From a virus, in IMG/VR virus record IMGVR_UViG_3300011116_000922, positions 83,411 through 147,410 of that record: DNA of 64,000 bases; one strand, given 5' to 3'. The translations under genes and the position numbers were made by a program. The notes under the pieces are model-generated. The model had not been told where the DNA came from and made no database searches. It saw nothing but the letters and a program-made list of their open reading frames with translations. This document shows positions 5,933-52,153 of this stretch, piece by piece (the first letter of the stretch is position 1; each line of letters starts with the position of its first letter).

Positions 5933-7855
5933 ATGAAGCAACTGCCAACACTCTATCAATCTTTCATCCATCTTTCACGCTACAGTCGTTGGCTTGATTC
6001 TGAAATGCGGCGCGAGACTTGGGAGGAAACGGTTGACCGTTACTTCCGTTTCTTTGACGAGCATTTTGCCGACAAGGGCGTGAAGATAAATAAGGCAGTC
6101 CGTGAAGAACTTCGTGAAGCAGTCCTGAATCTTGAAGTCATGCCGTCCATGCGGTCGCTGATGACCGCAGGGGAAGCCCTCAAGCGTGACAACACCGCTG
6201 GTTACAACTGCTCCTATGTTGCGGTCAACAAGGTTCGCGCATTTGATGAGATCCTGTATGTTCTCATGTGCGGAACAGGTGTAGGCTTTAGCGTGGAGAG
6301 GCAGTATGTTGAAAAACTTCCTACAATTGCTGAAGAGTTTACGCACAGCGATACACTTATTGTGGTCAAGGACTCCAAAGAAGGTTGGGCAAAAGCCTAC
6401 CGAGAACTGGTGTCCCTACTTATTGGAGGTCAAATCCCCCGATGGGACTTGTCTCACATTCGTCCTCTTGGTGCGCGCCTCAAGACTTTCGGTGGACGCG
6501 CAAGTGGACCGCAGCCACTGGAAGACCTCTTCCGATTTACCGTCAGTACTTTTAAGAAGAGTGCTGGTCGCAAACTCACCTCTATTGAATGCCACGACAT
6601 TATCTGTAAGATTGCAGAGATTGTCGTTGTCGGTGGAGTCCGTAGATCGGCTCTTATCTCGCTTTCCAATCTCACGGACGAACGGATGCGTGATGCTAAG
6701 GTGGGACAGTGGTGGTTGGAAAATCCACAACGGGCACTAGCCAACAACTCTGTTGCCTTCAAGGAGAAGCCCGAGATCGGCACATTCATGGAGGAGTGGG
6801 TTTCGCTGTACAAGTCCAAGAGCGGTGAGCGTGGACTGTTCAACCGCGAAGCGTGTCAGAAGACCGTGGAGAAACTGGGCGACCGCCGTGATCCTTCATA
6901 CGAGTTCGGCACAAACCCCTGCTCCGAGATCATTCTGCGCGACAAGGAGTTCTGCAATCTGAGCGAAGTCATTGTTCGCGCAGACGACACGCCTGATACC
7001 CTGAAGCGCAAGACTCGCCTTGCTGCAATTCTTGGTACTTGGCAGGCTTCTCTCACGAACTTCCCGTACCTCAGCAGTGAGTGGCGGAAGAATTGTGAAG
7101 AAGAGTGCTTGCTTGGTGTTTCGCTCACAGGCATTCTTGACAACAAACTGATGCGTACACAGGGCGACAATCTGAATGTGCTGCTTGAAACGCTGAAGGC
7201 GGATGCGGTTGCGGTCAACAAGGAGTGGGCAAAGCGGATTGGCATCAACCCCGCAGCGGCTATTACTTGCGTGAAGCCAAGCGGCACGGTGTCGCAGTTG
7301 ACTGATGCGGCTAGCGGCATCCACGCCCGTCACTCGGAGTACTACATTCGCACTGTTCGTGCAGACCGCAAAGACCCCATGTGTCAGTTTATGATTGACA
7401 AGGGCTTCCCTGCGGAGCCGTGTGTCATGCGCCCCGACCACACAATGGTGTTCTCGTTCCCGCAGAAGGCTGTGGGATCGGTGACGCGCAACGACATGAC
7501 GGCTATTGAACACCTTGAGTTGTGGCTTACCTATCAGCGTCACTGGTGCGAACACAAGCCAAGCATCACCGTGACGGTCAAGGAGCATGAGTGGATGGCG
7601 GTGGGTGCGTGGGTGTACGCGCACTTTGACGAGATCAGCGGCATTTCGTTCCTGCCGCACTCTGACCACACCTATCAGCAGGCTCCGTATCAGGACTGCA
7701 CAGCGGAGCAGTACGAAGCCGCTGCGGCTAAACTGCCACAGTCCATTGATTGGAGCAAGTTGACCCAGTACGAGAAGGAAGACACCACCAAGGGTACGCA
7801 GACCTTTGCGTGCAGTGCGGGTGTCTGCGAGGTCGTGGACTTGACTTCACAGTAA
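5933..7855 (+). CDS. nrdJ: class II adenosylcobalamin-dependent ribonucleotide reductase (monomeric RTPR type)
   Basis: RRETWEETVDRY, GYNC, VGGVRRSA, GTNPCSEI, TCVKPSGT, C-terminal ACSAGVCE; RBS AAGGAG. Confidence 0.93.
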   Translation: MKQLPTLYQSFIHLSRYSRWLDSEMRRETWEETVDRYFRFFDEHFADKGVKINKAVREELREAVLNLEVMPSMRSLMTAGEALKRDNTAGYNCSYVAVNKVRAFDEILYVLMCGTGVGFSVERQYVEKLPTIAEEFTHSDTLIVVKDSKEGWAKAYRELVSLLIGGQIPRWDLSHIRPLGARLKTFGGRASGPQPLEDLFRFTVSTFKKSAGRKLTSIECHDIICKIAEIVVVGGVRRSALISLSNLTDERMRDAKVGQWWLENPQRALANNSVAFKEKPEIGTFMEEWVSLYKSKSGERGLFNREACQKTVEKLGDRRDPSYEFGTNPCSEIILRDKEFCNLSEVIVRADDTPDTLKRKTRLAAILGTWQASLTNFPYLSSEWRKNCEEECLLGVSLTGILDNKLMRTQGDNLNVLLETLKADAVAVNKEWAKRIGINPAAAITCVKPSGTVSQLTDAASGIHARHSEYYIRTVRADRKDPMCQFMIDKGFPAEPCVMRPDHTMVFSFPQKAVGSVTRNDMTAIEHLELWLTYQRHWCEHKPSITVTVKEHEWMAVGAWVYAHFDEISGISFLPHSDHTYQQAPYQDCTAEQYEAAAAKLPQSIDWSKLTQYEKEDTTKGTQTFACSAGVCEVVDLTSQ

Positions 7856-37237: not shown

Positions 37238-37402
37238 ATGCCACGAATTGCAGTGCTTGAATCCGACCTCCGTGACGACACCATTGACTGGAGCGAATTT
37301 GAGAATTCCATCCGTTCCGATGCCGACCCCCGCGAGATCCGCCGACCCGCCGAAGAGGACGAATGGGAAGACGAAGACGACAGTGACGACGACCGCCGCT
37401 AA
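37238..37402 (+). CDS. small highly acidic protein
   Basis: MPRIAVLESDLRDDTIDWSEFE...EEDEWEDEDDSDDDRR; RBS AAGGA. Confidence 0.65.
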   Translation: MPRIAVLESDLRDDTIDWSEFENSIRSDADPREIRRPAEEDEWEDEDDSDDDRR

Positions 37403-37412
37403 ATAAACCCCC

Positions 37413-38816: not shown

Positions 38817-39226
38817 ACAGCACCGGAGACAAGCACTACACGGAATACCTGCTGATAGACAAGCACGCCTGTCAGTGGATTTTCCGCGTGTTTGAAACCG
38901 ATTGGGCAGATGTGCTTGTGCAGGTGTTACCGCAGGATGGGAGCAGCACTCCCCTTGTGTGGGCGCATCAGGTGCGGTACGCTCCGAATTTTCTAGCCCA
39001 GTTGCCGCCGGACACACGGCAAGCGGAAATGGCAAAGGCACACCTGTTTGAAAAGAAATATCGTGAGGTAACGGAGTTTGGGTACGACGACCCCTCAACA
39101 GGCTGGGCCGTGGCAGGAATTCGCATCCGGTTCAACCGGGACAACACCATGCGGTTGGGCAAGGGTGACGCACGGCGGCTGTGGGAGCGGATACGGCAAG
39201 ACTCCCCCCACACATCTAAAATATAA
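38813..39226 (+). CDS. early protein with ARRLWERI motif
   Basis: Truncated version of shared C-terminal motif. Confidence 0.6.
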   Translation: MNSTGDKHYTEYLLIDKHACQWIFRVFETDWADVLVQVLPQDGSSTPLVWAHQVRYAPNFLAQLPPDTRQAEMAKAHLFEKKYREVTEFGYDDPSTGWAVAGIRIRFNRDNTMRLGKGDARRLWERIRQDSPHTSKI

Positions 39227-39254
39227 AAATCACGAACGGTAGCCGTATAAATAA

Positions 39255-39376
39255 GTGTGGTCCGGGCAGCGTAGACAGGAGCGAACACTGATTACGCTAT
39301 TCGTGCAAAGGAACTTCGCTACCTTTCGACCGTCATAGAGGGGGAGTCCCACGGGTAGGGACTCCCCCGCTTTTTT
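39255..39376 (+). ncRNA. candidate structured ncRNA (3-way junction with loop-loop pairing)
   Basis: TATAAATA at 39246, paired stems, 11-bp terminator; no ORF. Confidence 0.55.
39340..39376 (+). terminator. intrinsic terminator
   Basis: GGGGGAGTCCC/GGGACTCCCCC then T-run. Confidence 0.85.
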
Positions 39377-39383
39377 ATTTGCA

Positions 39384-39728
39384 TCAGGTTTCATCGAAAA
39401 GGCCACCCGCGACCATAATTTCTGCAATTAGTGTGGCATCCAGTACGAGATCAAGATTTCCGTACTTGATGGGAAAGCCTGTGGGGCGATCACGCGAGGG
39501 CCACAGCGGCGGCACGGGTTCGGCTTTCACCGTGCCTGTGGCAATATCCACCTCAATGGGTGACACGCCTTCAATTCTCCAGTTGGGCACAGACTCCACC
39601 ACTGCGGATTGGATTTTTGCAGTGGTGCCCAAATCCGTGTCCGTGGTGGGTGCTGCTGCGGGGGTGTCGTTTAATTCGTTTGTACGGGCAGTGCGTTGTG
39701 CCTGAATAGCGTTCCAAGATAATGCCAT
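39384..39728 (-). CDS. hypothetical late protein
   Basis: MALSWNAIQ...; GGAGG RBS and CTACATA. Confidence 0.65.
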   Translation of the reverse strand: MALSWNAIQAQRTARTNELNDTPAAAPTTDTDLGTTAKIQSAVVESVPNWRIEGVSPIEVDIATGTVKAEPVPPLWPSRDRPTGFPIKYGNLDLVLDATLIAEIMVAGGLFDET

Positions 39729-39792
39729 AGGGTTCCTCCCCCATATGTAGGAGCATGGAATAAAAAAACTAAATAGTGCTGGAGGACACCCC

Positions 39793-40332
39793 ATGCGATT
39801 TGAATCACAGAAATACCGCGCACTGAATGAAAGCATTTCCCGTATTGAAGAGGCTCCGGGCAGCGGAGTGGAAGGCGACTACGAAGGCGAGATGGCACGG
39901 GGTGAACTCAAGTCTGCCATTGCCAACGCACAGGAACTGCTTGAACTGCTTGGCGAAGACGACGAGATTGAAGCGTGGGTGCAGTCCAAGATCACCAAAG
40001 CCGCGGACTACATTTCCGCTGTTCGCAACTACATGGTGGGCAACACCATTGAGGAAGCCACCGCTGCATGGCAGCGCAGTGCAGGAAAGAACCCCGAGGG
40101 CGGCTTGAACCGCAAGGGCGTGGAATCGTACCGCCGTGAACACCCCGGCTCCAAATTGCAGACAGCGGTCACAACCAAACCAAGCAAACTCAAGCCCGGT
40201 TCCAAAAGCGCAAACCGCCGCAAGTCGTTCTGCTCACGCATGAAGGGCATGAAGGCTAAACTCACATCGGCTGAAACAGCGCGGGATCCTGATTCGCGCA
40301 TCAACAAGTCTCTGCGAAAGTGGAACTGCTGA
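39793..40332 (+). CDS. DUF6321-like conserved myophage protein
   Basis: AWQRSAGKNPEGGLN...RRKSFCSRMKGM...SRINKSLRKWNC. Confidence 0.8.
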   Translation: MRFESQKYRALNESISRIEEAPGSGVEGDYEGEMARGELKSAIANAQELLELLGEDDEIEAWVQSKITKAADYISAVRNYMVGNTIEEATAAWQRSAGKNPEGGLNRKGVESYRREHPGSKLQTAVTTKPSKLKPGSKSANRRKSFCSRMKGMKAKLTSAETARDPDSRINKSLRKWNC

Positions 40333-51611: not shown

Positions 51612-51843
51612 AGAACTACACGCACTGATTGCCACTCGGAATTTCCTGTACGATCTGCTTGATCCGCGGAAGACTCCGCGAGTGCCACGCAGCATCCGGC
51701 TCCGTGCGCGGCAAGTGTGCAAGCACTACCCGTTTGATGACAACATCAGACAGCGGTGGGAAGACAGCATCCGTGAGAGTGGTTGGGGCAGTGAATTGAA
51801 TAGATACACTGATACTGTTGACGGTGGATCGAAACGCGAATAG
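51595..51843 (+). CDS. conserved small phage protein (MTLPHEE...TPRVPR..R..AR...KHYP)
   Basis: Motif recalled from T4-like phages; 3' end overlaps tmRNA acceptor piece. Confidence 0.65.
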   Translation: MTLPHEELHALIATRNFLYDLLDPRKTPRVPRSIRLRARQVCKHYPFDDNIRQRWEDSIRESGWGSELNRYTDTVDGGSKRE

Positions 51844-52153
51844 CACGGGGGTTCGAATCCCCCCGACTCCATTAGCCTAACCTGATTTCCACTGCGAGTT
51901 TTCAGGGACGGCGAATCAAGTCCTCTGTGCAGCGGGGCAATCCCCGGAGTGCTAGCCTCCGGGAAACGGGGTCGAACCGGAATCGACTAGCGCGGATTAG
52001 TGAAGCAAGAGGTATCCGGGGCGGGTTACAGAGCCTCGTTAAAAACCCTGTTGCAACCATAATTGCCAACAGAATGGCAATGGCGGCTTGAAGCCGTGGG
52101 GAAAGCCCTCCCGCATCTGAACGGGCAGGACGGGACGGCAGAAATGCCGTCCC
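51808..52153 (+). ncRNA. ssrA: circularly permuted (two-piece) tmRNA
   Basis: T-arm and acceptor 3' strand CGACTCCA (51847-51871) lie upstream of 5' GGGGTCG..GGAATCGAC (51968); G3-U70; tag ANRMAMAA* at 52065-52091; terminator 52132-52160. Confidence 0.9.

Follow-up and report, generated by a model that had tools for sequence, protein, structure and literature searches.

The stretch of DNA analysed here (64,000 nt, positions 83,411 to 147,410 of IMG/VR record IMGVR_UViG_3300011116_000922), referred to below as the window, comprises the final 64 kb of a virus record that is complete, measures 147,410 bp and carries terminal repeats. At positions 39246-39376, a preliminary description made from the sequence alone placed a late non-coding RNA with a three-way junction and two complementary loops, for which it offered a decoy, an antitoxin mimic, a ribozyme or an oligomerizing RNA as possible functions. 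The locus thus raises the question of whether this element is a real RNA gene and, if so, with what its RNA might interact.

The RNA gene and its fold

A genuine non-coding RNA gene, about 120 nt long, lies at this position. The features named in the preliminary description (the box TATAAATA, helices P1, P2 and P3, the complementary loops and the 11-bp terminator) are all present and were placed correctly to within one base. They are listed here together with the segments identified in the present analysis.

39246-39253, + strand: putative late promoter box TATAAATA of the T4 type, read from the sequence
39257-39376, + strand: predicted small RNA of ~120 nt, comprising a three-way-junction domain and a terminator hairpin, from its fold and family conservation
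39257-39262, + strand: 5' strand of P1, paired with 39328-39333 (six pairs, two of them G.U)
39328-39333, + strand: 3' strand of P1, also complementary to the 3' strand of 23S rRNA helix 69
39263-39303, + strand: P2, a long irregular hairpin in the computed folds, with loop 2 in its apical loop
39268-39273 with 39293-39298, + strand: core helix of P2, perfectly paired
39280-39285, + strand: loop 2, with an invariant GCGAA core and the same letters as 23S rRNA 1933-1938
39307-39326, + strand: P3 hairpin, with a perfect stem (39307-39311 with 39322-39326)
39312-39321, + strand: loop 3, 10 nt, invariant; the part facing loop 2 is 39315-39320
39291-39307, + strand: antisense segment 1, complementary to E. 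coli 23S rRNA 1963-1979 at 16 of 17 positions
39308-39338, + strand: antisense segment 2, complementary to E. coli 23S rRNA 1914-1944 at 27 of 31 positions
39340-39376, + strand: intrinsic terminator (11-bp stem, 7-nt loop, T6)

RNAfold yielded a minimum free energy of -48.9 kcal/mol (z = -2.75), a stability equalled by one of 200 shuffled sequences. P1, P2 and P3 were all recovered in this fold, P2 gaining a 4-bp base and a 3-bp top, and the strands of the junction measure 0-3 nt in the window copy. Loop 2 (39280-39285) is perfectly complementary to the loop 3 stretch 39315-39320. The terminator begins 6 nt after P1; its stem (39340-39350 with 39358-39368) has 11 pairs, nine of which are G-C, and T6 follows at 39371-39376. 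On the RNA strand, the window copy thus shows the GC-rich stem and trailing T-run that mark an intrinsic terminator. A search of the whole genome with covariance model R1 found a single copy.

No conserved open reading frame was found: the window's 27-codon frame is disrupted in relatives and, given these carry indels that are not multiples of three, a peptide conserved across the family is ruled out. The earlier reading of a self-contained, structured, non-coding unit holds, with a late-type box and an intrinsic terminator of its own and with no open reading frame kept in relatives.

Related loci, transcribed strand and genome setting

About 60 copies of the element, representing about 30 distinct variants in four subtypes, were found in contigs of T4-like phages and in metagenomes. 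The first two relatives were obtained by BLAST against loci fetched via the neighbouring DUF6321 gene, and pattern searches returned 16 loci in IMG/VR and 46 metagenome loci, along with three chance matches. These patterns held parts of the core constant, and the sample is therefore biased towards conserved copies. Leaving loop 3 free in the pattern returned the identical 16 loci, with zero loop variants, and an exact 23-mer search of IMG/VR gave no match. One further copy lies on a contig binned with a betaproteobacterial MAG (RFVZ01000078.1, 10.3 kb, labelled 'Betaproteobacteria'), where positions 6514-6603 constitute the top-scoring copy at 104.8 bits; this is probably a phage contig, and possibly a pointer to the host. 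Two long carrier contigs also encode a T4-type gp23.

The gene context varies. Depending on the locus, the RNA precedes the DUF6321 gene, follows it or is separated from it by one gene, and its position relative to an OMP-like gene varies too. The gene following the window copy is conserved and convergent, the extended subtype is found in an unrelated gene context, and an exonuclease is the only nameable gene among the neighbours of the D subtype. The extended subtype takes its name from a 5' extension of roughly 20-30 nt. In loci L083, L093, L102 and L143 this extension (the initial ~25-30 nt of the RNA) contains a GGGAUUGAAU-like stretch, which pairs with the segment between P2 and P3 (six pairs, with one G.U variant) and which we take to resemble the 3' end of some CRISPR repeats.

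Every subtype folds as P1, a long irregular P2 with a GCGA(A) loop and P3 with a 10-nt loop. In an alignment of 23 sequences, standard pairs fill 91.1% of the helix cells, as against 33-47% when the partners are slid, and four pairs overall are changed on both sides. P3 is paired in 100% of its cells and shows an A-U to C-G swap (seven versus 16 sequences), while P2 is paired in 88% of its cells; many of its changes affect one side and give G.U pairs, and two of its pairs differ on both sides. P1 retains at least four pairs in all subtypes through a register shift, its inner pair being A-U, U-A or G-C according to subtype. Covariation among homologs had been named as a check on the preliminary description, and all three helices indeed persist in the relatives with compensatory changes. 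An alternative long P1 engulfing the 3' strand of P3 is possible in two subtypes, so that the junction assigned to those two is tentative. Automatic alignment of the mixed subtypes (MAFFT and RNAalifold) recovered P3 alone, the 5' strands not being column-aligned, and covariance model R1 is sequence-driven and did not realign P1 in two subtypes. Neither loop 2 nor loop 3 varies in any of the copies found, so that conservation rather than covariation supports their predicted mutual pairing; covariation is equally uninformative on the pairing with rRNA proposed below.

The same alignment bears on the transcribed strand. Read on the opposite strand, the helix cells are paired in 75.2% of cases, against the 91.1% of the + strand, where 96 cells are G.U. 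A TAAATA-type box lies upstream in 59 of the 61 family loci with enough flank, at a box-to-loop 2 spacing of 27-33 nt (49 nt in the extended subtype). According to a crude script whose test does not include the hairpin, all 61 also have a T-run after the core; in the extracted relatives, a GC hairpin is seen between core and T-run. Given the pairing bias, the G.U cells, the upstream box and the downstream T-run agree, the + strand is identified as the RNA strand. In the window, TATAAATA occurs three times against 0.42 expected, a count reached in none of 100 shuffles. Elsewhere in the genome, several ORF starts are preceded at 7-54 nt by TAAATA-type boxes, which is consistent with a late-promoter role. 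Between 38700 and 40000, a search of both strands found no sigma-70-type promoter. Taken as sequence signals, these features suggest that the + strand would be transcribed from a T4-type late promoter and that transcription would end at the RNA's own terminator.

Two further boxes of the form CTAAATA were observed on the + strand of the window. The one at 39769-39775 precedes the DUF6321 start codon (ATG, 39793) by 18 nt, and the one at 37399-37405 lies 8 nt before a tRNA-Leu gene (37413), which suggests that a relaxed late box drives a tRNA gene too.

The genome encodes a T4-like major capsid protein gp23 (E 1e-135). The nearest GenBank matches of the DUF6321 gene belong to Synechococcus T4-like phages; identification as a cyanophage was dropped despite these matches, since psbA is absent from the complete genome. 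The virus is best described as a T4-like phage of a Gram-negative host that is probably not a typical cyanophage, a cyanobacterial host being improbable. As for the immediate neighbours, a 150-aa ORF at 39384-39836 on the - strand is convergent with the RNA gene; it is conserved across seven related loci, fits no known family and gave no match in IMG/VR. A terminator-like hairpin for the - strand (39414-39401) lies within the last codons of this ORF, before the RNA element. The capsid-like match of an upstream 144-aa ORF was rejected as spurious, and no informative relatives of the DUF6321 neighbour were found.

Complementarity to 23S rRNA

The first trace of a possible partner was a weak 31-nt database match to 23S rRNA. 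The 3' half of the element (39291-39338) is antisense to bacterial 23S rRNA, with 43 of 48 positions identical to the reverse complement. The match covers E. coli positions 1914-1944 and 1963-1979, i.e., the loop and 3' strand of helix 69 and the region of helix/loop 70; this numbering was derived from modified positions whose places we take as known. The two segments abut in the phage and are 18 nt apart in the rRNA, a gap that corresponds exactly to the hairpin of helix 71. The gapped local alignment scores 60.75, against 21.7 +/- 2.5 (maximum 36.8) for 1000 dinucleotide shuffles and 17.5 for the rRNA sense strand. No likeness to rRNA is seen in the 5' half, and no other 23S-like stretch was found in the 147-kb genome. 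The LSU rRNA model gave no match at E <= 10 on the genome, the fragment being too short for this model, and a search for targets within the phage genome returned 11-12-mers at chance level only.

The complementarity extends to the family. Each of the 16 distinct 3' halves is still complementary at 35-43 of the 48 positions; the window copy stands at 43, and most subtypes stand at 35-38, with drift outside the core. Nearly all invariant positions of the family are complementary to rRNA, with one fixed exception, a C opposite A1938 in all members, which leaves the complement of the loop at 9/10. In one subtype P3 is altered on both strands, so that the hairpin is retained and the flanking complementarity is reduced. 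Given the hairpin is kept while the flanking complementarity is lost, the loop appears to be the part that is presented. Of 41 Pseudomonadota genomes sampled, 27 gave a match to the target, and in these it shares 96-100% identity with the Salmonella sequence. Since the target is near-identical across bacteria, E. coli ribosomes are usable as a test system.

Computed folds show how the two molecules could meet. On its own, the rRNA fragment folds helix/loop 70 into a hairpin whose stem has 4 bp and whose loop has 10 nt. This hairpin is complementary to P3, so that the P3 loop would face the loop of a target hairpin, as expected of a kissing-loop antisense RNA. When the element was cofolded with a 91-nt rRNA fragment, the ddG was -39.9 kcal/mol, whereas shuffled targets gave -7.2 +/- 3.1, and both helix 71 and the phage terminator remain folded in the complex. 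Loop 3 alone forms a duplex of -25.9 kcal/mol with the rRNA. The single-stranded tail that follows P1 complements the loop of helix 69, and the 3' strand of P2 complements rRNA 1973-1979. Loop 2, in turn, shares the sequence of rRNA 1933-1938, so the "kissing loops" of the preliminary description amount to loop 3 and an internal copy of its probable target. That description had allowed for loop pairing between molecules, which comes close; the partner it named, another copy of the same RNA, was wrong, the probable one being 23S rRNA.

A second phage element was found against the same rRNA region. Seven GenBank records of five cultured, large Vibrio phages (PWH3a-P1, NC_020863.1 80487-81309; qdvp001; vB_VpaM_R16F; vB_VibM_10AMN; and P018-4), carry a complement of the helix 69 region of 23S rRNA with 21 of 23 positions matching. 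It is unannotated and intergenic, lies on the strand of the flanking genes, and complements the loop and 3' strand of helix 69 and the beginning of helix/loop 70. About 70 nt downstream lies another short complement, here to rRNA 1929-1936. In comparison with the family described here, the order of the segments is swapped and both fold and flanks differ; the Vibrio element folds no better than its shuffles.

In locus L086 and its relatives, which form one subtype, a 12-nt segment at the 5' end of the RNA, reaching across P1 into the base of P2, is a perfect complement of another 23S stretch (1021-1032 of the Salmonella record, E 0.018 against a single rRNA). This second match may be due to chance.

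Proposed action on 50S subunits and alternative readings

The gene-like unit, its family, its fold, its strand and the complementarity statistics are all observed. From them we infer transcription, pairing in the cell and purpose, in the form of a late RNA that would act in trans by pairing with 23S rRNA in free or nascent 50S subunits, a proposal that we regard as evenly balanced between being right and being wrong. The loop of P3, antisense to helix/loop 70, would start a loop-loop (kissing) contact with the 23S rRNA. Pairing could spread from there in both directions: the 3' strand of P1 and the single-stranded tail would extend it to the 3' strand and loop of helix 69, and the 3' strand of P2 would extend it to rRNA 1963-1979, with helix 71 extruded as the third arm of a junction. 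Loop 2, which repeats the target, could keep loop 3 covered by intramolecular pairing until the rRNA is encountered.

The site appears suited to such a contact. Helix/loop 70 (UUCCU) is single-stranded, is required for subunit association and for contacts with tRNA and RRF, and is cut by the toxins MazF-mt6 and MazF-mt3 in free 50S subunits, not in 70S ribosomes (PMC5408214). This pattern of cutting suggests that the site can be reached in free or nascent subunits. The element's predicted pairing covers more than this loop. In the mature ribosome the stem of helix 69 is paired and held in the subunit, so pairing along the full length would require unfolded or nascent rRNA.

The target stretch forms inter-subunit bridges. 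Pairing would probably leave the inter-subunit face of the 50S subunit occupied by the RNA, which could serve to control subunit joining or recycling, or to shield or splint the loop against ribotoxins; alternatively, the purpose might be to tether the RNA to 50S subunits. In its general form, the proposal is that large phages, T4-like ones included, use Watson-Crick pairing to dock a dedicated RNA on the inter-subunit face of the host's 50S subunit, at helix/loop 70 and helix 69, thereby gating joining or recycling or protecting the loop from rRNA-cutting defence toxins by shielding or splinting. We put this forward tentatively, as plausible but somewhat more apt to fail than to hold. It counts against the proposal that the reason why a phage should block 50S subunits late in infection is not obvious.

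The alternative that fares best is a relic: rDNA captured in inverted orientation and since put to another job, in which a three-way junction held by loop 2 and loop 3 serves, for example, as a protein decoy or sponge, with no contact to rRNA. Several observations fit it. Compensatory changes keep the helices even at the cost of rRNA complementarity, neither loop 2 nor loop 3 varies and each complements the other, the mismatch opposite A1938 is fixed in all copies, the 5' half is unlike rRNA, and the drift of most subtypes to 35-38 of 48 positions is what captured rDNA now used otherwise could show. However, the invariant positions coincide almost exactly with the rRNA-complementary ones, the gap between the segments is precisely one rRNA hairpin, and the cultured Vibrio phages hold a differently arranged element against the same two rRNA stretches, which is hard to reconcile with one neutral capture. 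We thus consider a relic unlikely, with perhaps a minor share of the probability.

A cis-acting element, serving the upstream gene as a structured 3' UTR and terminator or the DUF6321 or OMP-like gene downstream as a leader or attenuator, would account for the fact that the RNA is always near those genes and on their strand, and for those loci in which it starts directly at the stop codon of the upstream gene. Yet the flanking genes differ by locus, the window's next gene is convergent and one subtype sits in an unrelated context; moreover, the element has a promoter-type box of its own and the next gene has a second box past the terminator, and the terminators vary by subtype around a constant core, leaving no conserved antiterminator evident. 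Regulation in cis is accordingly very unlikely.

It is likewise highly improbable, to a slightly greater degree, that the - strand is the functional one and yields a sense mimic of 23S helices 69-70, in other words a decoy for some factor recognizing this region, for instance a ribotoxin, a modification enzyme or a recycling factor. That strand does read as a 43/48 copy of an rRNA stretch that is a known target of MazF-type toxins (PMC5408214), but its helices pair in 75.2% of cells against 91.1% on the + strand, and it is the + strand that carries the box (59/61) and the T-run (61/61). In addition, the adjoining - strand gene has its own terminator-like site before the element, and neither strand has a sigma-70-type promoter between 38700 and 40000. 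Finally, an action as DNA, as an rDNA-like target of a homing endonuclease or a recombination site, is barely credible: although the element resembles an rDNA stretch targeted by LAGLIDADG enzymes and the antisense-matched stretch overlaps what we take to be the I-CeuI site region of 23S genes, its helices are strand-specific, depend on G.U pairs and carry compensatory changes, its promoter box and terminator indicate RNA, and several positions differ inside the endonuclease-site region.

The proposed pairing with 23S rRNA can be set beside known antisense RNAs. CopA/CopT of plasmid R1 and RNA I/RNA II of ColE1 are plasmid systems in which an antisense RNA presents a loop. The phage RNA is like them in being small, in ending at an intrinsic terminator and in having a loop antisense to a target loop, where kissing followed by spreading would be expected. 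However, those RNAs are encoded opposite their targets and act on an mRNA or a primer, whereas the phage RNA is viral and would act in trans on host 23S rRNA; the internal copy of the target (loop 2) also sets the phage RNA apart. With sRNAs that act in trans by base-pairing, bacterial and phage ones alike, it shares a predicted promoter of its own, a structured body, single-stranded seeds and a Rho-independent terminator (PMC12197685), but known phage sRNAs pair with mRNAs, and a complement to rRNA at 43 of 48 bases goes far beyond the usual seed.

Box C/D and H/ACA guides of archaea and eukaryotes likewise function by pairing with conserved rRNA. To our knowledge, bacteria and phages lack the partner proteins of these guides. 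Their fold is different, and the phage RNA is without conserved C, D or ACA boxes: no C box (RUGAUGA) was found, and CUGA occurs in the window copy only, being lost in the other subtypes, so the box C/D class was rejected. Additional pairing with pre-rRNA has been described for rRNA-guide RNAs (PMC3116282).

The SRP Alu domain and the purine riboswitch aptamer resemble the element in that a P1 closes two hairpins with pairable loops, but the phage RNA has 5-6 Watson-Crick loop-loop pairs and no downstream gene that it controls. The former was rejected given no SRP family matched at E <= 10, the UGUAAU turn is absent from 39257-39338 and there is no S domain; the latter, given there is no Rfam match and the downstream gene varies among loci and is convergent in the window. 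Self-cleaving ribozymes, the hammerhead included, gave no Rfam match either, and the catalytic core (CUGANGA, GAAA) is absent, so that the ribozyme proposed earlier can be set aside. Nothing points to the antitoxin mimic that was proposed alongside it.

To our reading of the field, phages alter host ribosomes via proteins and regulate mRNAs via small RNAs. The full-text literature searched described no phage RNA pairing with rRNA, and a 2025 review of phage small RNAs makes no mention of rRNA (PMC12197685). If the proposal is true, it would represent direct manipulation of the bacterial ribosome by a virus at the level of RNA, and an RNA occupying helices 69-70 would be a new route to control or protect translation. 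Natural selection would then have picked this rRNA loop as accessible to antisense, which is relevant to antisense antibacterials. Given the Vibrio carriers are cultured, the idea is testable in them as well.

An Rfam hit was the result that the preliminary description had named as removing the element's novelty, and no family matches it: for 39150-39450 the best match has an E of 0.24 and concerns the terminator only, and five other members of the family gave nothing at E <= 1. Around the element, ARAGORN gives just two known tRNAs, and a tRNA-like reading was rejected. Over the whole window, the only matches to Rfam release 15 that passed the gathering score were tRNAs and a permuted tmRNA. 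Nine tRNA genes are present, and the permuted (two-piece) tmRNA gene lies at 51811-52091 on the + strand, matching RF04321 with 66.8 bits against a gathering score of 47.
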